Positions 1,771 through 64,000 of a DNA stretch of 64,000 bases are shown in pieces. Position 1 is the stretch's first letter. Every line of letters starts with the position of its first letter. The translations under genes and the position numbers were made by a program. The notes beneath the pieces are model-generated. The model ran no database searches. It saw nothing but the letters and a program-made list of their open reading frames with translations, and was not told where the DNA came from. The stretch comes from Deltaproteobacteria bacterium (GTDB lineage: Bacteria; Desulfobacterota; Desulfobacteria; Desulfobacterales; JAHEIW01). The stretch lies in NCBI GenBank assembly GCA_024639185.1, contig JAHEIW010000011.1, positions 976 through 64,975 on the forward strand, written 5' to 3'.

Positions 1771-2123
1771 TTTTCTAAACCCTTTTTTATCCGATAGATG
1801 ACCGCCTCTCGCGGGTATACTATCTGACTATCTGTTTCAAAATAATTATTTTTACAAAATAAAATCCTCAACGGCAAGCTAAAATTGTGGCGTCTTAACC
1901 TCAGCGATGATATTTTTTAATAAAAGGCCATCCTGTGTGGTTGTACTTTGACCTTTAAGATATTAAAATGTAAGGTGCACACCGAAGTTTCATATTCCAT
2001 ATTAAGCGTTTTATACCGCTTGTCACTACAATGTTCGGAATAACGCAAAAATGGATGGCGGCATAAGTGTTGGAGCAAAAACCGTCCTGCAATCGGAACG
2101 TTTTTTTGACAACGACTATAGAC

Positions 2124-2861
2124 ATGAAAACAAACCCCAATACAGATCTCATTCTTTCATATGCCCATACGCATAACCGCTGTTTATCCTGCGGTACCGA
2201 CGAAAATATGGGTAGACGAAAATACTGCTCTATCGATTGTCGCCAGAAGCTGCGTTACAGTTTGAATATGCGCACAGGTTTGTTAAGAGCGCTCAGCACC
2301 AAGTATGCGGTCTTCTATTTTACGACTTCCCTTATTTTTCTGGATGTGTTGCCATATGGCTCAGCGGATATTTTCAGTTTTCTGTTTCCGCGCAGTGTCG
2401 GACGAAAACCGGTTGATGATTTCACCACACTGTCCAACGTGTTAGGAAGGGCGTGGTGGGCTGAAAGGCGCCGGACCAACAAGCGCTATATCGCCACCCA
2501 GCATGTTTTGGAAAGAGCCAAGAATCAAGATGCCGGCTATAATTCAATCAAACCTTATGAAATCGTGGAACCAGCGCGAATGGCAAAGTCATTGACCTTT
2601 CTTAAACTGGGCCGTGCGGACCTGGATTCACCTGAATTGCAAAGGACCATTAAAAGTGCCTACCGACAGCAGGCTAAAACCCACCACCCCGATCAGGGGG
2701 GCGACGCTGCTGTTTTCTTGCGGGTTCAACAGGCCTATGAGCAACTGATGGACTGGGCTGAAAACCCGACATACACGCGCCGTCGTGGTTTTCCAGATAA
2801 ATGGTTTTATGAAGGCAGTACTAGCCGGTGGATACAACCCGCCGCCATAAAACTGGCTTAA
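2124..2861 (+). CDS. J-domain (DnaJ-like) protein with an N-terminal Cys4 zinc-ribbon-like motif
   Basis: C-terminal J-domain with the HPD tripeptide (YRQQAKTHHPDQGGD...FLRVQQAYEQL). N-terminal CLSCG...CSIDC. ATG at 2124 preferred over the alternative start at 2067. The last 4 codons and the stop lie inside the repeat at 2849-2991. Confidence 0.7.
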   Translation: MKTNPNTDLILSYAHTHNRCLSCGTDENMGRRKYCSIDCRQKLRYSLNMRTGLLRALSTKYAVFYFTTSLIFLDVLPYGSADIFSFLFPRSVGRKPVDDFTTLSNVLGRAWWAERRRTNKRYIATQHVLERAKNQDAGYNSIKPYEIVEPARMAKSLTFLKLGRADLDSPELQRTIKSAYRQQAKTHHPDQGGDAAVFLRVQQAYEQLMDWAENPTYTRRRGFPDKWFYEGSTSRWIQPAAIKLA

Positions 2862-2991
2862 AACCGCATAATTTTCCCGATGGCTGCGTTACAATTCGTT
2901 TCAAAATGCTCGCGTACTATCGTGTACGCTCCGCTTTTGAAACGAATCAAGCCTTGCCCTTGAAAAAATTCTACGGTTTTAAGCCAGTTTT
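2849..2991. repeat. ~142-bp near-palindromic intergenic element, family A, full copy
   Basis: Perfect 18-bp terminal inverted repeat aaaactggcttaaaaccg / cggttttaagccagtttt. The core matches the copies at 3898-4041, 25546-25690 and 60081-60222. Confidence 0.85.
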
Positions 2992-3094
2992 AGTTTAAAC
3001 TTTAAACATAATATTGTTTTCAAGGAAAACGATCCTGTTAGCAACTTATTTACTGTAGGATTGTTTAATTAGGCAAATTTTATTACTAACGGGT

Positions 3095-3769
3095 CTACCC
3101 AACAGCGGCGGCGACCACGGCCTGCACATTTTCCAGTTTGGCATTGGCCGGGATATCGCAGCCAGACTGCAATATAAAACCCTGCGGGCCAAGCTGCCGG
3201 ATGAGACGTGTACAGTATGCGTAGATATCCTCGGGCTGCTTTAAAAACAGCATCGATGCCGGAACATCTCCCATAATACACATGTGATCGCCCAAAATTT
3301 CTTTGGCTTTGAAAATAGCGGTTTCACCGTCAAAGGCCAAAATACATTTTCCTCGCGGAAGTTCTTTGAAACGCTCCAGTTCGCGCGTCCAATCCGAATC
3401 CAGATGTAACAATGCAATCAGCCCTGCATCAACCACCTGCCACATCTCATTATCGGGCAAATCCACTCCCGGTACGCGCACCTTGGCCATAAAATCATAG
3501 CACAGGCCATACGGCCAGAAGGCCCCATAGTTGATGGCATCACCATCACCCACCAGCTCAAATGCTTTGATCATGGTGTCGATATTGGTTCGGGGAGATT
3601 TCAAGAAGGCCGCCATCGGTGTGTGGGTGGCATTGGCCGCAAACCCGGAATACTCCAGAACAACCGGTGTGCGATCCGGCTTTTCCAGGGCAACGGCCTT
3701 TAAGATTCGATCCAACCGCTGGTTGTATAGATCTTCAGTGCACATGCTATTTGGCTTGTTTTTTTTCAC
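3095..3769 (-). CDS. uroporphyrinogen decarboxylase (URO-D/MtaA-like) family protein, apparently internally deleted (possible pseudogene)
   Basis: 224 aa. The N-terminal ~100 aa and C-terminal ~115 aa resemble the two ends of the URO-D barrel family (members are usually 330-400 aa). The central part appears absent, with the junction near ...NEMWQVV/DAGLIALLHLD. The first start codon is GTG at 3769; an ATG lies at 3745. Confidence 0.55.
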   Translation of the reverse strand: MKKNKPNSMCTEDLYNQRLDRILKAVALEKPDRTPVVLEYSGFAANATHTPMAAFLKSPRTNIDTMIKAFELVGDGDAINYGAFWPYGLCYDFMAKVRVPGVDLPDNEMWQVVDAGLIALLHLDSDWTRELERFKELPRGKCILAFDGETAIFKAKEILGDHMCIMGDVPASMLFLKQPEDIYAYCTRLIRQLGPQGFILQSGCDIPANAKLENVQAVVAAAVG

Positions 3770-3773
3770 CGCA

Positions 3774-3818
3774 GACCCGCCCGCCTCGCCTTTTGGACTC
3801 GCGTGGCGGGCGTGGGGC
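3774..3818. repeat. GC-rich stem-loop repeat, family B
   Basis: The sequence gacccgcccgcctcgcctt...tggcgggcgtggg is near-identical to 63955-63997. The 19 nt on the 5-prime side and 13 nt on the 3-prime side are identical; the loop differs. Confidence 0.8.
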
Positions 3819-3897
3819 GCAAAGTGTGCAAAGATTATCTGATTATCTGGAAGGACTATATAGATCTATGAAACTATCTTGATTAAAAAATATTATT

Positions 3898-4041
3898 AGA
3901 ATCGATTTGAAAACATCAGATTTTGGTTGAGAGCAAGGCATAATTCGATTCAAAAACGGAGCGTACACGTCAGTACGCGAGTATTTTGAATTGAATTATA
4001 ACACAGCTATCGGCCAAAAGATGTGTTTTGAAATCGATTCT
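3898..4041. repeat. ~142-bp near-palindromic intergenic element, family A, full copy
   Basis: Termini agaatcgatttgaaaacat / atgtgttttgaaatcgattct are complementary. The core caaaaacggagcgtacacgtcagtacgcgagtattttgaa matches the other copies. The right end overlaps the ilvD stop codon (4040-4042). Confidence 0.85.
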
Positions 4042-5734
4042 ACCGTTCGAAAACTGCGCCCGTATCCGCGCTCGAAACCATCTGTGCATAACGGGCCAGA
4101 TAGCCGCTTTTGACTTTGGGCTCAAATTCGGGCAGGGCAGCGATCCGTTTGCGAATCTCGTCTTCGGTTAATTGCACGTTGAGACGTTTTTGGGGGATAT
4201 CGATTTCGATAATATCCCCATCGCGCAGTGCTGCAATCGGCCCGCCTGCAGCCGCTTCCGGAGAAACGTGCCCGATGGCCGCCCCGCGGCTGGCGCCTGA
4301 AAAGCGACCGTCGGTGATCAGGGCCACCTGCTTATCCATCCCCATACCGGCCAGCGCCGATGTGGGCGAGAGCATTTCGCGCATGCCGGGCCCGCCTTTT
4401 GGCCCTTCATAGCGAACCACGATCACTTCGCCTTTTTTAATCTGCGCATCCATGATGGCCTCAAACACATCTTCTTCAGAGTTAAAAATCCGGGCTGGAC
4501 CCGCATGGGTCAGCATCTCCTCTGAGACGGCAGCCTGTTTTACAATGGCGCCATCGGGCGCCAGGTTCCCGCTGAGAATGGCCAGTCCGCCGCCGCGGTG
4601 GACCGGTTTTTCAATTGAACGAATGACCGTATAATCTTTGACGCCGGCGTTTATGTCGGTCAGCATGTCGCCAACGGATTTCCCGTAGACTGTCGGCGGG
4701 TTGGTTTTGATGAGCCGGGCTTTGTTCAGTTCGGCCAAAATGGCAGGGATGCCACCGGCATAAAATAGATCTACAACGTGATGGGGACCGGCGGGCGCAA
4801 TAGAGGTCAAATGGGGCACTTTGGCGGTAAAGGGATCCAGATCTCTGAGGGTTAAATCCAGGCCGGCATAATAGGCCAGTGCCGGAATGTGCAGCGCCGT
4901 ATTGGTGGAACCGCCCAGCGCCATATCGGCCGCAATGGCATTGTGAAACGCGTCTGCTGTCATGATATCGCGGGGTTTTAAGTCCTTTTTGACCAGCTCG
5001 ACGGCTTTGTAGCCGGTTTCTTTGGCCAGCCATATGCGTTCCGAAAAAACAGCCGGTGCACTGCCGTTAAACGGCAGCGACATGCCCAGCGCTTCTGAAA
5101 GATTGCTCATGGTATTGGCAGTGAACATTCCCGAACAGGAGCCGGCGCCGGGGCAGGCAGCGCATTCAAAGGTATCCAGTTCTTCTTCGGAAATTTTTCC
5201 ACTTTTAAAACGACCGACAGCTTCAAAAACTTTGTCCAGTCCCGTATCTTTGCCCTGGACCTTGCCTGGCAGCATCGGCCCGCCGGATAAAAAAATCGCG
5301 GGAATGTTCAACCGGGCAGCAGCGATCAGCATGCCCGGTATGATCTTGTCACAGGATGCCAGCAAAACCAAACCATCAAAAGGATGGGCTACCGCCATGG
5401 TTTCGACCGTGTCGGCGATCAATTCCCGGCTGGGCAGCGAATATTTCATGCCATCATGGTTCATGGCGATGCCGTCACAAATACCGATGGTGTTAAAGAC
5501 CAGCGGCGTGCCCCCGGCTGCATATATCCCGGCTTTGACCGCATCGACCAGCTTGTCCAGATGCATGTGTCCCGGTATGATCTCATTGAATGAGTTGGCG
5601 ATACCGATCATCGGCCGTTCCAACTCCCAGTCCGTGAAGCCATCTGCTCTGAGCAGGGAACGATGGGGTGCTCTTTCGGGGCCTTTGGTCATCAAATCAC
5701 TTCGTTTGCTCATTGTTCTGTTCCTTATATTCAA
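4040..5734 (-). CDS. ilvD: dihydroxy-acid dehydratase
   Basis: 564-aa ORF with typical IlvD/Edd sequence ([13 protein letters not shown]..., CDKIIPGM, Fe-S Cys residues). The real start is probably MSKRSD at 5713. Confidence 0.95.
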
Positions 5735-25496: not shown

Positions 25497-25545
25497 AATT
25501 GAGAATAGAGGCCAGAAGCGAGAAGCCAGCGGCCAAGGAAGCACT

Positions 25546-25690
25546 AAAAGCTATTTATAAAATAGTAAATTATTGCCACGGGCAAGGCGAAAACCGATTC
25601 AAAGGCGGAGCATACACGTTAGTATTCGAGTATTTTGAATCGGTTTTTAACAAAGCCCATGGGCGTAAGATGCATTTTAAAATAGCTTTT
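25546..25690. repeat. ~142-bp near-palindromic intergenic element, family A, full copy
   Basis: Termini aaaagctatttataaaat / attttaaaatagctttt. The core ggcaaggcgaaaaccgattcaaaggcggagcatacacgttagtattcgagtattttgaatcggttttt is nearly identical to the rc of the 60081-60222 copy. The right end overlaps the ridA-like stop codon. Confidence 0.88.
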
Positions 25691-25964
25691 AAATATATGC
25701 CGTGGCTGTAATTTCAACTCTAGTATTGAAGGGCAGGCTGCCGGCCTGGATGCAGGTGCGGGCCGGACGACTTTTTTTAAAATATTTCAGGTAGACGTCA
25801 TTAAAGCGCGCGTATTCTGCGATGTCGAGAAGATAAACTGTAACTGTCAAAACTTTATCTAAGGAGGAGCCGGCCTCTTCCAATATGATTTGTAAATTCT
25901 CTAACCCCAGCTCAGCTTCTTCTTCCAGCGTACCCGGCTTTATCTGATTGGTTTGGGGATCCAC
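25689..25964 (-). CDS. RidA/YjgF-family protein, apparently truncated at the 5-prime end
   Basis: C-terminal RidA pattern (...PARTCIQAGSLPFNTRVEITATAYI). The frame stays open upstream to 26036 and encodes ...SNSQAIIHNGIIYVSGQGA. There is no ATG/GTG/TTG before the in-frame TAG at 26037-26039. Confidence 0.6.
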   Translation of the reverse strand: MDPQTNQIKPGTLEEEAELGLENLQIILEEAGSSLDKVLTVTVYLLDIAEYARFNDVYLKYFKKSRPARTCIQAGSLPFNTRVEITATAYI

Positions 25965-26062
25965 CGCTCCCTGGCCGGAGACATAGATAATCCCATTGTG
26001 GATGATGGCTTGCGAATTGGAACACAGCCAGTGGCCCTAAGATGAATTTTTAAAACGATTTT

Positions 26063-26761
26063 TTAGATGCCGCAGATATGTTTGACTTCCTCGTTATCGA
26101 TGAGTTCATCAACCGGTCCCTGGTAGCAGATGCGGCCATTGTCGATAATGTAGCCGTAATCGCTCAAGGATAGCGTAAATTTAACGTTTTGTTCGGCCAG
26201 CAGAACCGTCAATCCCACTTCTTTGAGTTTTTGGATACGCTCACCCAGGATCTTGACCAGCACCGGCGCCAAGCCCTCGGTGGGCTCATCCAGCAATAAA
26301 AATTGCGGATTGGTCATCAGAGCCCTTCCAATGGCCAGCATTTTTTGCTCCCCGCCGCTGAGCAGCCCCCCTTTGCGGCTGTCCATTTTTTTCAATGCTG
26401 AAAACAAATCGTAGACTTTTTGTTTGTCCCATTGCTCACCGGTAGCGCTTGCACGGGCGGCAATTTCCAGATTCTCACCGACCGTCAGGTCGGCAAAGAT
26501 GCGGCGGTCATCGGGCACCCAGGCTATGCCCTGACGGACCCGTTTGTAGGGCGGTGCGCCGGTCACATCAATGTTGTTAAATTGGATGTGCCCCTGGGCC
26601 GGAGGATTCAACCCCATGATGCTTCGAAACGTGGTGGTCTTGCCGGCGCCGTTTCGTCCCAGCAGACAAACGACCTGCCCCTTTTTGACTTTCAGGGACA
26701 CATCGAAAAGAATGTGGCTCAAGCCGTAGTAGGTGTGAATACCGTCAACCGCGAGCATCAT
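26063..26761 (-). CDS. livF: branched-chain amino acid ABC transporter ATP-binding protein
   Basis: Walker A GRNGAGKTT, signature LSGGEQ, Walker B LLLDEP. Last gene of a liv-type operon. Confidence 0.9.
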   Translation of the reverse strand: MMLAVDGIHTYYGLSHILFDVSLKVKKGQVVCLLGRNGAGKTTTFRSIMGLNPPAQGHIQFNNIDVTGAPPYKRVRQGIAWVPDDRRIFADLTVGENLEIAARASATGEQWDKQKVYDLFSALKKMDSRKGGLLSGGEQKMLAIGRALMTNPQFLLLDEPTEGLAPVLVKILGERIQKLKEVGLTVLLAEQNVKFTLSLSDYGYIIDNGRICYQGPVDELIDNEEVKHICGI

Positions 26762-53451: not shown

Positions 53452-53745
53452 TTTGATAAATAAAAGACAGTTACGAAAAGTGCAGTTCGGTTAGTGTCTT
53501 TCACAATGATCTTTATGACAATCTTAAGTTCATCTGGCAATTTTTTCAACCGAGATTGACGATAATTTGTTGGAAAATGCGGTATGTTCTAATTGGAAGG
53601 ATTCATGGCTATCGATAGGGGGATTTGGATGACATCAATATTGCAAATCAGATAACAGTCATTGCCCAAATATACAAATAGAACGGACGTACCCCTTTTC
53701 CATCCCATTAATTATGTTATGAAATATAGGGAATAGTATACTGGA

Positions 53746-53790
53746 TAACACAGCCATTGGGCGTTAGATGCATTTTTGAGATAGCTTTTA
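53746..53790. repeat. half copy of the family A element
   Basis: taacacagccattgggcgttagatgcatttttgagatagctttta matches the stop-proximal half of the other copies. It ends on the comM stop codon (53788-53790). Confidence 0.75.
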
Positions 53791-58721: not shown

Positions 58722-60080
58722 ATGATCGCATCGGTACTAATTGTTGATGATGAGCAGTCAATTGTGCAGTCATTGAGTGGATTGCTTTCAGATGAGGGTT
58801 TTGAGGTTTCAACAGCGGTCAACGGATATGATGCCCTAAAGGCCATTGAATCGCAATCGCCGGACCTGGTTTTACTCGACATCTGGATGCCGGGAATGGA
58901 TGGAATTGAAACCCTGACGGAAATTAAAAAAATTAATCCTCAAATTCAGGTCATCATTATCACGGGTCACGGGACGATTGAAACGGCGGTTAAAGCCACC
59001 AAACTGGGCGCCTTTGATCTGGTTGAAAAGCCGCTTTCAATTGATAAGATCATTTTAAGTATAAACAATGCGCTCAATTACCAGCGCCTGGAAGAAGAAA
59101 ATAAATATCTTCGAACCAAGACTCTGGAAAAGCATTCAATAGACGGAGAATCAGAAAGGACAAAGGCTTTAAGGAAAAATATCGAAGTTGCAGCACCGAC
59201 AGACACCTGGATACTGATTAGAGGAGAAAACGGCACCGGAAAGGAACTGGTGGCGCGCACGATTCATCAGCTCAGCCCACGGGTCGAACAACCCCTGATT
59301 GATGTCAGTTGTGCGGCCATCCGGGATGAACTATTGGAAAACGAAATGTTCGGCCATGAAAAAGGTTCATTTCCCGGAGCGACCGCCAAAAAAATAGGCA
59401 AATTTGAACTGGCCAATAATGGCACCATATTTCTGGATGAAATCGGTGATATGAGTTTAAGCTCTCAGGCCAAAATTCTGCGGGTTTTGCAGGAACAGCA
59501 GATACAACGGGTCGGCGGAAGCCGTCTGATCGGTATTGATGTGAGGGTGATTGCCACCACCAATAAAAATCTGGAAAAGGAAATCGATATGGGAACATTT
59601 CGAGAAGATCTCTATTATCGCTTGAATGTGATTCCAATTGATGTCCCGCCTCTAAGAGAACGCATCGAGGATCTTCCGTTTTTGGTCGAGGCATTACTGG
59701 AGGAATTTGCTGTGCAGAATCGCAGCAAACGCAAAACCATGAGTCTTGCGGCCATGAGCATGTTGAGTAATTATGCCTGGCCGGGAAACGTCAGGGAGTT
59801 GCGTAACCTGGTTGAACGACTGGCGATCATGGTCGATAAAGACCTTATTGATGTTGAGGATATACCGGATTCGTACCGCCCCGGTGGTTTGACCTATCCT
59901 GCGTATGCCGCCACAGCACCGTTTATGAAATTAGATAATTTTAAAGAAGCCAAAAAAGCATTTGAAAAAGAATTTATAAAAATTAAATTGGTTCAGAATG
60001 AAAACAACATTACCAAAACCGCCAAAGCCATGAAGGTCGGTAGGAGTTATCTGCACAAAAAAATCAAAAGCCTCAAATAG
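58722..60080 (+). CDS. ntrX: NtrX/NtrC-family response regulator (receiver, AAA+ sigma54-activator domain, HTH)
   Basis: Receiver domain D...D...K. Walker A GENGTGKE. ESELFGHEKG-like region. C-terminal Fis-type HTH. The GAFTGA position reads GSFPGA. Confidence 0.85.
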   Translation: MIASVLIVDDEQSIVQSLSGLLSDEGFEVSTAVNGYDALKAIESQSPDLVLLDIWMPGMDGIETLTEIKKINPQIQVIIITGHGTIETAVKATKLGAFDLVEKPLSIDKIILSINNALNYQRLEEENKYLRTKTLEKHSIDGESERTKALRKNIEVAAPTDTWILIRGENGTGKELVARTIHQLSPRVEQPLIDVSCAAIRDELLENEMFGHEKGSFPGATAKKIGKFELANNGTIFLDEIGDMSLSSQAKILRVLQEQQIQRVGGSRLIGIDVRVIATTNKNLEKEIDMGTFREDLYYRLNVIPIDVPPLRERIEDLPFLVEALLEEFAVQNRSKRKTMSLAAMSMLSNYAWPGNVRELRNLVERLAIMVDKDLIDVEDIPDSYRPGGLTYPAYAATAPFMKLDNFKEAKKAFEKEFIKIKLVQNENNITKTAKAMKVGRSYLHKKIKSLK

Positions 60081-60222
60081 AAGCGGTCTTAAAAATGCAT
60101 CTAACGCCCAAGGGCTGTGTTAAAAACCGATTCAAAATGCTCGAATACTAGCGTGTATGCTCCACTTTTGAATCGGTTTTCGCCTTGCCCTTGGGCGTGA
60201 TCTACTATTTTTAAGACCGCTT
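60081..60222. repeat. ~142-bp near-palindromic intergenic element, family A, full copy
   Basis: Perfect 16-bp termini aagcggtcttaaaaat / atttttaagaccgctt. It starts on the base after the ntrX stop codon (60078-60080). Confidence 0.9.
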
Positions 60223-60330
60223 CAAATTTATTTTTATAAATTGGAAACTTAATAATTTTAAGACCGCTTCAAAATTGTTTTTATAATTTGGAAACTTAGG
60301 TTTTTTAAGACCGCTTCCAATATAAACGAG
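60211..60330. repeat. 47-bp tandem direct repeat (2 full units plus a partial third)
   Basis: Units start at 60211, 60258 and 60305. Each begins ttaagaccgcttc, which is the right terminus of the family A element. Units 1 and 2 are near-identical (ttaagaccgcttcaaa[t/a]tt[a/g]tttttataa[a]tt[t]ggaaactta). Confidence 0.85.
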
Positions 60331-63954: not shown

Positions 63955-63997
63955 GACCCGCCCGCCTCGCCTTGCGGCATCGCATGGCGGGCGTGGG
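63955..63997. repeat. GC-rich stem-loop repeat, family B (at the window edge)
   Basis: gacccgcccgcctcgccttgcggcatcgcatggcgggcgtggg matches 3774-3818. Confidence 0.8.
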
Positions 63998-64000
63998 CCG

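Follow-up and report, generated by a model that had tools for sequence, protein, structure and literature searches.

Why should copies of one hairpin-forming repeat begin at the stop codons of unrelated genes? The question is raised by a 64,000-nt stretch of contig JAHEIW010000011.1 (Deltaproteobacteria bacterium, assembly GCA_024639185.1), here called the window, in which a near-palindromic element of ~145 nt adjoins the ends of several genes. The stop-codon-docked hairpin repeat is a real feature, statistically solid and stronger than first described. The window holds four full copies and two 5' fragments, that is six sites, each at the stop of a different gene. An earlier reading of the same DNA, referred to below as the original prediction, had listed the four full copies and a half copy, all of them within 1–2 nt of where we find them. 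Its five sites are right and one was missed, the minus-strand fragment after the livF-like stop (26013-26065).

Each window copy is assigned the strand of its abutting upstream gene, and hairpin bounds were taken from folds. All six copies abut or overlap a stop codon and, relative to the upstream gene, all point the same way, as had been claimed for the five. Five of the six start exactly at a TAG or TAA. In the sixth (2848) the open reading frame (ORF) reads four codons into the outer arm to a stop at 2859-2861, and the TAA at the usual place (2848-2850) is out of frame. Aligned in gene orientation, the six copies have the 5' part ..AAAA-NN-CATCT-N5-CC-N4-GCTGTGTT.. in common. The shared asymmetric core of the original prediction is likewise present: TACTNNCGTGTAYGCTCC occurs four times in the window, in all full copies, against 0.33 expected by chance, and 0 of 100 shuffles reach four. 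An independent repeat search returned the copies at 2850 and 60081 as direct repeats, those at 3910 and 25559 likewise, the two pairs being mutually inverted, and an extra fragment at 26020-26050. When folded, the full copies each form a single long hairpin (z-scores -7 to -13.8); the copy flagged at the outset (60080-60223) has a folding free energy (dG) of -74.6, a z-score of -12.5 and a covariance-model score of 171.9 bits. The comM-like fragment (53745..53790) is cut directly behind the conserved loop GGCTGTGTTA and the livF fragment (26013..26065) in the same loop.

The window copies belong to a wider family. A scan with the 18-nt core over one genome per species (596 Gb) gave at least 115 loci, and all family counts rest on these matches; by our own arithmetic, several hundred chance matches to the core would be expected in 596 Gb. 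About 20 of the loci are chance matches within coding sequence, without surrounding similarity, and the remaining loci are true relatives. With nhmmer about 100 copies were found among the matches listed, and 56 full copies were aligned. A covariance model built from 50 copies recovers 60 full copies at E < 1e-19, together with weaker GC-rich relatives. Most copies among the matches listed come from Desulfobacterales metagenome-assembled genomes (MAGs), and the IlvD protein of the window is 95–97% identical to proteins from such MAGs, which places the window itself in this order. Copies are found in Desulfobacterota, Nitrospirota, Nitrospinota, Alpha-, Beta- and Gammaproteobacteria, Chlorobi, Myxococcota and Acidobacteriota. 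Clear relatives that share both apex and architecture were found in Nitrospirales, Nitrospinota, Rhodanobacteraceae, Lysobacterales, Legionellales, Gallionella and Pseudohongiella, and further ones in a Rhodospirillaceae MAG, Prosthecochloris, Myxococcota and Thermoanaerobaculia. The apex of a sister subfamily is a different one, CCTCGACATAC-N4-GTATGCCTCCGG.

A search of Rfam, which the original prediction had suggested, assigned the element to no family: in Rfam 15 the whole window gave no match at the gathering threshold, and a permissive E-value search around the flagged copy gave only noise (E >= 1). Plasmid and phage collections contained no match to the element, the 26 pattern matches in viral contigs were all chance matches and none a true copy, and no description of the motif or of stop-codon-docked repeats was found in the searchable literature. 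The family is large, multi-phylum and apparently undescribed. Several public contigs (our loci L196, L114, L064, L032, and L007) end inside the element or a few nt away from it; L196 ends 14 nt past the stop of ilvD, a site that a copy occupies in the window.

The element is a single hairpin of 54 base pairs. In gene sense its 5' half consists, in order, of the TAG/TAA stop, AA, a variable arm of ~8 nt, AAAA, the loop CATCT, helix 2, the loop GGCTGYGTTG and helix 4. The apex is ATGCTCRCGTACTNNCGTGTAYGCTCCGC, and the 3' half continues with helix 4', the loop CGCCTTGCCC, helix 2', the loop (G/A)ATCT(R), TTTT, the variable arm' and TT(C/T)TA. The two asymmetric internal loops (CATCT vs GATCT and GGCTGYGTTG vs CGCCTTGCCC) and the apex (..CTCRCGTACTNNCGTGTAYGCTCCG..) are kept in sequence, while the stems are kept in pairing alone. 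The invariant alignment columns fall in the apex, which is the most conserved part.

A structure under selection had been proposed originally, and covariation agrees with it. In the alignment of 60 copies, which was fitted to the covariance model and thereby favours structure, standard pairs fill 88.2% of cells as against 28–43% with partners slid by 1–3 columns, a very large margin; both sides have changed in 41 of the 54 pairs, and none of 500 shuffles reaches any observed measure. Helix 1 has double changes in 17 of its 18 pairs. The outer arms, of at least six sequence types, vary among copies yet stay self-complementary, and the compensatory changes listed earlier are found, the apical pair being G-C in 41 and A-T in 18 of 60 family members.

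Two variations on this anatomy were seen. An optional module of ~53 nt (..TTAATNTNNTAAGATCTGATGCGAAATCCCGC-loop-GCGGG..) with its own small G+C hairpin is inserted at CGCCTT^GCCC in the 3' loop (L026, L103, L112, L081, L048, L054, L004, L058) or mirrored in the 5' loop at GYGTTG^ (L026, L004, L025, L022, L080), and is either a second nested mini-element or an optional branch. In L045 (4769-4922) the 3' arm is the exact inverted 5' arm, asymmetric loop included (AGATG for GATCT), so that the copy scores on both strands. This looks like the conversion of one arm by the other.

Table 1. Copies of the stop-docked hairpin repeat in the 64-kb window, with the parts of the copy flagged at the outset.
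Feature	Coordinates	Strand	Remarks
Full copy (flagged)	60078..60223	+	Hairpin 60080-60223; TAG stop 60078-60080 of NtrC/NtrX-type regulator gene
Flagged copy, outer stem	60080-60097 / 60206-60223	+	From fold
Flagged copy, asymmetric loop	60098-60103 / 60199-60205	+	GCATCT facing GATCTAC
Flagged copy, helix 2	60104-60115 / 60187-60198	+	
Flagged copy, apex core	60146-60163	+	TACTAGCGTGTATGCTCC
Full copy	2848..2992	+	End of DnaJ-domain gene 2067..2861; 137.5 bits
Full copy	3897..4042	-	Begins at native TAG stop 4040-4042 of ilvD (4040..5734, -); 146.9 bits
Full copy	25545..25691	-	Begins at TAA stop 25689-25691 of short RidA-like ORF 25689..25964; 130.4 bits
5' fragment, ~45 nt	53745..53790	-	After TAA stop 53788-53790 of comM-like gene
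5' fragment, ~50 nt	26013..26065	-	After TAA stop 26063-26065 of LivF-like ABC ATPase ORF 26063..26761

Does the rule seen in the window hold for the family? In the 56 aligned copies we counted open frames of at least 70 codons that end near either end of the element. The stop of such a long ORF lies at -4..+2 nt of the gene-sense first column in 44 of 56 copies, and exactly on the column in 30, whereas no ORF (0/56) converges on the opposite end within the same range. Position and orientation relative to genes are consequently not random, in line with the original prediction. The model-based alignment places a long-ORF stop within 4 nt of the same end in 46 of 60 copies. The rule holds far afield, in Legionellales (L032, TAG), Prosthecochloris (L029, TAG), Nitrospinota (L021, TAA) and GC-rich Desulfobacterales (L077). 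The stop lies a few nt within the basal stem in L042, L092 and L095, and the sole clear exception is a Myxococcota variant (L111, L061) in which an ORF stop adjoins the other end. Only 35 of the 714 TAA/TAG triplets in the window at which an insertion would be non-disruptive are true stops (4.9%), so finding six of six copies there is far from chance. Proteins at the docking sites are left intact or altered by at most a few residues.

The surroundings of the docking site were also inspected. The last 15 nt of the upstream ORFs have an ordinary coding composition, which leaves no extended upstream target and rules out a special sequence before the stop as the target. The 15 nt past the element are 77% A+T (39% A, 38% T), with a T-A-A-T-T-T tendency and no T-run. 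For 54 copies the downstream neighbour was recorded; it is co-directional in 32, at 17–454 nt to its start, and convergent in 22. A conserved in-frame back-up stop was ruled out, the distance to the next stop being scattered over 2–116 codons, and an outward sigma-70 promoter in the 3' arm was rejected as the cause of the orientation lock (a 9/12 match in only 7 of 60 copies). Copies are oriented with the gene, not with the chromosome strand: those at 2848 and 3897, 1 kb apart, are inverted relative to each other, which makes a purely replication-strand explanation unlikely.

The stop codons themselves are unevenly used. At the junctions of 46 copies we find TAA 23, TAG 21 and TGA 2 times, compared with 107, 57 and 76 for the other long ORFs of the same loci. 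Since TGA is nearly absent from the junction (2/46 vs a background of 32%), the junction needs TA, and that TAG is over-represented agrees with elements beginning with G. Of 60 copies, 23 have TA at the mirrored 3' position, and the base after it is A in 12, G in 4, T in 4 and C in 3. A nested full copy in L001 (2910-3058) lies within an older copy, away from any real stop codon, and has TA on both flanks and its own arms. A TA target-site duplication at the stop is likely, though not proven.

Comparison of orthologous sites shows that occupancy changes. IlvD ends at the same codon (..GAVF(E/Q)R-TAG) in the filled site of the window, in L196 and L198, which have no trace of the element, and in L197, where the arm's first 9 nt (AATCGATTC) are left; the ilvD stop that the element follows is therefore the native one. 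LivF likewise ends ..CGI-TAA in all states, followed by the 50-nt 5' fragment in the window, by a full sister-subfamily copy and then TAA in L201-L206, and by only the first 12 nt of that copy in L207 and L208. At the ntrX-type site 25 nt are left in L116 (92% protein identity), among them the conserved AAAAATGCATCTAA, and the next gene follows directly; a metagenome scan for empty sites based on NtrX returned only this one close relative. The end of the dnaJ-like gene is in three states in three relatives, with the C-termini ..AAIKLA*, ..AAIKL* and ..AAIKITPR*. L199 carries the element in full, L198 and L200 instead a 45-nt stub belonging to another variant, and all three share an identical IlvD protein (P0004). 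In Rhodanobacteraceae the hpf site is filled in L023 and empty in its relative L098.

The stubs are always 5' pieces of 9–50 nt beside the stop, several of them ending in the same conserved loop, which is what deletions barred from removing the stop codon would leave. We considered whether the stubs in L116, L197 and L207 could be ancestral empty targets; this is rejected for L116, as its 25 nt include AAAAATGCATCTAA, and a deletion that cannot remove the stop codon is the simplest reading of all three. Orthologous sites are also occupied in genomes whose flanking genes are 70–85% identical, with stems almost wholly different and loops the same. This indicates long residence with compensatory evolution, and possibly a host-level role. 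One orthologous stop carries different subfamilies in three MAGs (L022 3975-4127, with the other apex; L058 4076-4272; L009 517-671), which suggests replacement or repeated colonisation. The interval between livF and a gene for an AI-2E-family transporter holds a 91-aa RidA-like ORF in the window (25689-25964, -), no gene in L201-L206 and, in both L207 and L208, a 421-aa aminotransferase, and this region is a rearrangement hot spot flanked by copies of the element.

Which strand carries the selected structure? Among the non-Watson-Crick cells of the stems, A.C/C.A on the gene-sense strand (G.U on the complement) number 214 and sense G.U 52, a count that leaves out three near-constant G.U columns beside the loops (215 vs 147 with all included). 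The complement folds better in 57 of 60 copies, with a mean of -73.3 vs -59.6 kcal/mol (13.6 apart; binomial p ~6e-14), and is more stable in all four full window copies as well. Mutational asymmetries of the usual sort, for example C-to-T on the non-transcribed strand, would work against this bias, so that the selected structure should be either the complement-strand hairpin or a sense-RNA hairpin that has been selectively weakened. By analogy with the ends of IS200/IS605, the substrates of REP/RAYT systems (see below) and attC sites, the bottom-strand bias suggests a single-stranded hairpin as the relevant form.

These results bear directly on whether the element is a host RNA structure of the 3' untranslated region, which in mRNA sense would terminate transcription, block 3' exonucleases or keep the stop near the next operon start. 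Its constant place downstream of an ORF in transcribed orientation, the 32 of 54 copies between co-directional genes with the next start 17–454 nt away, the strong covariation and the long occupancy of orthologous sites would all suit such a role, and in one copy the apex mini-hairpin with TTTT was flagged as terminator-like. We nevertheless regard this explanation as unlikely. The sense strand carries the destabilising A.C mismatches and is the weaker folder in 57 of 60 copies by a mean of 13.6 kcal/mol, and no U-tract stands behind the hairpin, the 3' flank being 39% A and 38% T. These same points contradict the original prediction, which took the mRNA-sense hairpin to be the selected structure. 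Moreover, RNA function should be indifferent to TGA, which is found at 2 of 46 junctions against 32% in the background, and neither termination nor stabilisation needs contact with the stop that is exact to the nucleotide. The A-run and U-run described earlier for the two ends do exist, but they are paired together inside the basal stem and form no terminator-style tail. An intrinsic (Rho-independent) terminator is ruled out: the basal stem is A/T-rich, there is no U-tract, and the terminator scan flags only the 6-bp apex of one copy.

A one-way insulator against antisense transcription would place the strong folder where it is found, on the complementary strand, and 22 of 54 copies do face a convergent gene; sense copies between co-directional genes would, on this explanation, have to be passable for operons. 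We give it little credence. The antisense direction runs into the complement of ordinary coding sequence with no U-tract, and no conserved antisense promoter or terminator signal was found in the copies scanned. It also leaves unexplained the TA/TGA bias, the exact stop contact and the nested TA-flanked copy.

The chances seem to us about even that the element is instead a mobile, structure-constrained, non-autonomous palindrome that acts through its bottom-strand hairpin, like a MITE (a miniature transposable element with inverted repeats) or a REPIN but of a new type. A mobile element is preferred to a conventional RNA motif because of its many copies, its patchy distribution over phyla, the TA ends, the avoidance of TGA, the nested copy, the stubs and the turnover, together with conserved loops and covarying stems. 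The original prediction had favoured a structure other than a MITE; the TA ends, the nested TA-flanked copy, the TGA depletion, the site polymorphism and the decayed 5' fragments speak against that part of it. Copies are observed to dock on the TA of a TAA or TAG stop, and insertion may take place at this TA. The first base of the element (G or A) would then rebuild the stop; at the far end lies a second TA, after which A or G is the usual base. Judging from the strand asymmetry, the active form would be the hairpin on the strand complementary to the upstream gene, and the single-stranded DNA might be handled by a putative trans-acting, strand-specific enzyme of the HUH or tyrosine-recombinase kind. 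Copies decay by deletions that spare the stop codon, giving 5' stubs of 9–50 nt, and sites turn over between variants. The stop and orientation rule would call for strand-specific insertion coupled to a mark of the gene end, for strong selection or for both.

Two ways in which such an element might have acquired its parts were rejected. The outer arms are not copied from the target at insertion, as the arm types GAACCYATCTC, GAAGTGGTTTC, AAACTGGCTTM and GAAGCTRTCTC recur at unrelated loci and genomes and the nested L001 copy has its own arms. Nor was the inner core inserted into a small 'shell' hairpin with ATCT duplication, since about 1 Mb contained no core-less shell.

Several points weigh against a mobile palindrome. 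No transposase, rayt gene or other partner protein was seen, tblastn with an approximate IS200 TnpA query finding nothing in 1.36 Mb of loci, which include no whole genome and make this a weak test. Half-copies and interrupted copies revealed no autonomous insertion sequence (IS) that shares the ends, and no dedicated IS search was made. The comparisons at the ilvD, livF, dnaJ-like and hpf sites gave no filled/empty pair with alignable 3' flanks. The TA is self-complementary and could simply be the end of the palindrome. TA targeting alone does not explain the at least 15-fold enrichment on in-frame stops, because a DNA enzyme cannot read frame, and the orientation lock needs a further cause, because symmetric TA insertion rebuilds the stop either way. 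Selection to weaken the mRNA-sense hairpin, and not use of the bottom strand, could in principle have produced the strand asymmetry. Finally, orthologous occupancy at 70–85% flank identity fits vertical, host-useful elements as well as it fits active transposition.

If the element is a mobile palindrome, which known system does it resemble? Judged by analogy, the closest in behaviour is that of the repetitive extragenic palindromes (REPs), their hairpin-forming doublets (REPINs) and the REP-associated tyrosine transposases (RAYTs). Like the element, REPs are numerous palindromes outside genes that fold into long hairpins; most lie downstream of genes, where the neighbouring ORFs are co-directional or convergent, and they persist for long periods under vertical inheritance, as the element also appears to do (PMC3733652, PMC2817692; bioRxiv 10.1101/2021.07.10.451892, 10.1101/2022.05.22.493013). 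Di Nocera et al. (PMC3733652) report that the TAG stop of a flanking ORF is often provided by the end of a GTAG REP. In REP/RAYT systems a strand-specific, IS200/IS605-like HUH Y1 enzyme handles single-stranded hairpins, and handling of the element might be similar. There are also differences. The GT(A/G)G head of REPs is absent, just 6 of 46 copies have G before the junction stop, and no more than about 10 of 50 have CTAC (GTAG on the complement) in the 3' loop. The element is ~145 nt long with two conserved asymmetric loops and is most conserved at its centre, whereas a REPIN consists of two inverted REPs of 20–40 nt around a variable spacer. Nunvar et al. (2010; PMC2817692) found RAYTs in Proteobacteria only, while the element spans at least seven phyla.

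A second parallel is QMITE2 of Coxiella burnetii, which is 150–190 bp long, has a hairpin core and copy-specific flanks and overlaps ORF 3' ends by 1–10 bp; it occurs mainly in ORF 3' regions, in full and truncated versions, with positions conserved in the long term (PMC5896051). The element is similar to it in habit, that is in its hairpin core, copy-specific flanks, overlap with ORF ends, truncated forms and lasting positions. The GTAG REP core, the 7–11-nt direct repeats and the IS1111 insertions of QMITE2 (PMC5896051) are not seen in the element, the two having been compared by description only. Matches to the element are found also in Legionellales MAGs (L032, L076).

MITEs in general are small (below about 400 bp), non-coding and hairpin-forming (PMC5896051), and the element at ~145 nt is likewise non-coding and multi-copy. 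With TA-duplicating MITEs it shares a size of 100–160 bp, lack of coding capacity, folding of the whole element into a hairpin, TA ends, a location at gene ends and an orientation that can be scored. The Correia/NEMIS elements of Neisseria, which are IS630/Tc1-like, are near-palindromic, have TA at both ends and an asymmetric core, and are often near or overlapping gene ends. They have no sequence similarity to the element, which differs from them also in its complement-strand folding bias, and to our knowledge neither an orientation lock nor nucleotide-exact docking on in-frame stops has been described for them. The terminal repeats that copies of a MITE share are missing here; the arms are copy-specific and contain no common inverted repeat to which a transposase might bind. 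The element is a kind of palindromic repeat with unusual rules: stop docking, strict orientation, bottom-strand folding and an apex conserved across phyla.

The precision of docking leads to a bolder reading, which we rate as a long shot, namely that the element is retro-mobile and coupled to translation. A ribosome-sensing process would target stops, and the hairpin RNA would be joined to the cut mRNA and copied back into DNA. We know of no element of this kind in bacteria. The junction is UA|R inside an in-frame stop, with UAG and UAA used and UGA nearly absent, and A-site cleavage by RelE is reported to favour, in UAG stop codons, the position between nucleotides 2 and 3 (PMC2680264), the junction at which TA meets the element. 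A cut of the RelE type followed by RNA joining and copying back would explain the frame specificity, the fixed orientation and the TA junction, and the better folding of the complement would follow if the selected intermediate were a cDNA hairpin. A milder alternative, only a lead and by analogy, is a strand-specific HUH enzyme that nicks the element at its conserved apex, whose sequence CGTACTAC(C)G is similar to the nick site of RepB, TACTACG/AC, which lies in a hairpin loop (PMC5030251).

Least of all do we expect a single-strand recombination site of the integron attC type, in which a tyrosine recombinase would act on the folded bottom strand and the upstream gene would be a present or former cassette. 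Sites of attC type start at or over the upstream stop with their orientation locked to the ORF, are conserved in structure over sequence, function through the bottom strand and have a variable apex. Although the element behaves alike in its start at the stop, its orientation lock, its imperfect palindrome (60–150 nt, with unpaired features that are conserved and stems that covary) and its better bottom-strand fold, and is spread over taxa much as chromosomal integrons are, it does not follow the R-box rule (RYYYAAC can be read in the 5' CATCTAAC, but its 3' partner GATCT(R) is a direct repeat and not the inverse GTTRRRY, just as, in place of an R''/R' pair, 5' CATCT(A/T)(A/T) faces 3' (G/A)ATCT(A/G) as a same-strand direct repeat), the copies are dispersed on both strands after core and housekeeping genes (ilvD, livF, ntrC-type regulator, comM, dnaJ-like, hpf) with no arrays or intI, in the basal stem, unlike in attC, the gene-proximal flank is paired to the distal end, and the apex is the most conserved part.

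Other repeats and ORFs in the window were noted in passing. Directly 3' of the flagged copy lie tandem units (60203..60320, +) with a period of 47–50 nt, 89% identity and three repeats. Each unit repeats the 3' outer arm TTTTAAGACCGCTTC (60209-60223, 60256-60270, 60306-60320) with an A/T-rich spacer of ~30 nt; the second has a 10/12 sigma-70-like match (TTAAGA-18-TATAAT), and L087 shows a comparable local doubling of its 3' arm. The ORF after ilvD (3095-3769, -) starts like the URO-D-family gene of relatives (368 aa, L198-L200), is only 224 aa long and may be truncated or rearranged beside the element at 2848-2992. A G+C-rich, partly palindromic repeat of 46 nt (GACCCGCCCGCCTCGCC..GGCGGGCGTGGG.CG) is present at 3774-3819 and 63955-64000 with 87% identity; its first copy is upstream of the gene following ilvD, where L197 and L198 hold another palindrome (CACCGCAGAG..CTCTGCGGTG), and it looks like a second hairpin repeat family of these intergenic regions. 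Three repeat pairs of 29–35 nt, 77–86% identical or complementary (2011-2043/17349-17381, 2100-2128/14088-14116 and 14111-14145/63783-63817), lie just upstream of gene starts (2067 +, 14186 +, 17717 +, 63754 -) and may be a shared promoter or operator motif.

For the genomes that carry it, the element is a sequence that changes protein C-termini by a few residues, is unannotated in Rfam and probably breaks short-read metagenome assemblies. The conserved 30-nt apex suggests a binding site for a putative protein partner. If our reading is right, six copies per 64 kb would extrapolate to hundreds of copies per genome, and a multi-phylum family would obey a rule that ordinary transposition chemistry leaves unexplained: in-frame stops, one way round, with the gene undamaged. 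Explaining the docking would reveal either a new targeting principle, be it strand-specific, single-stranded or translation-coupled, or a strong general filter on the sequence that follows stop codons.

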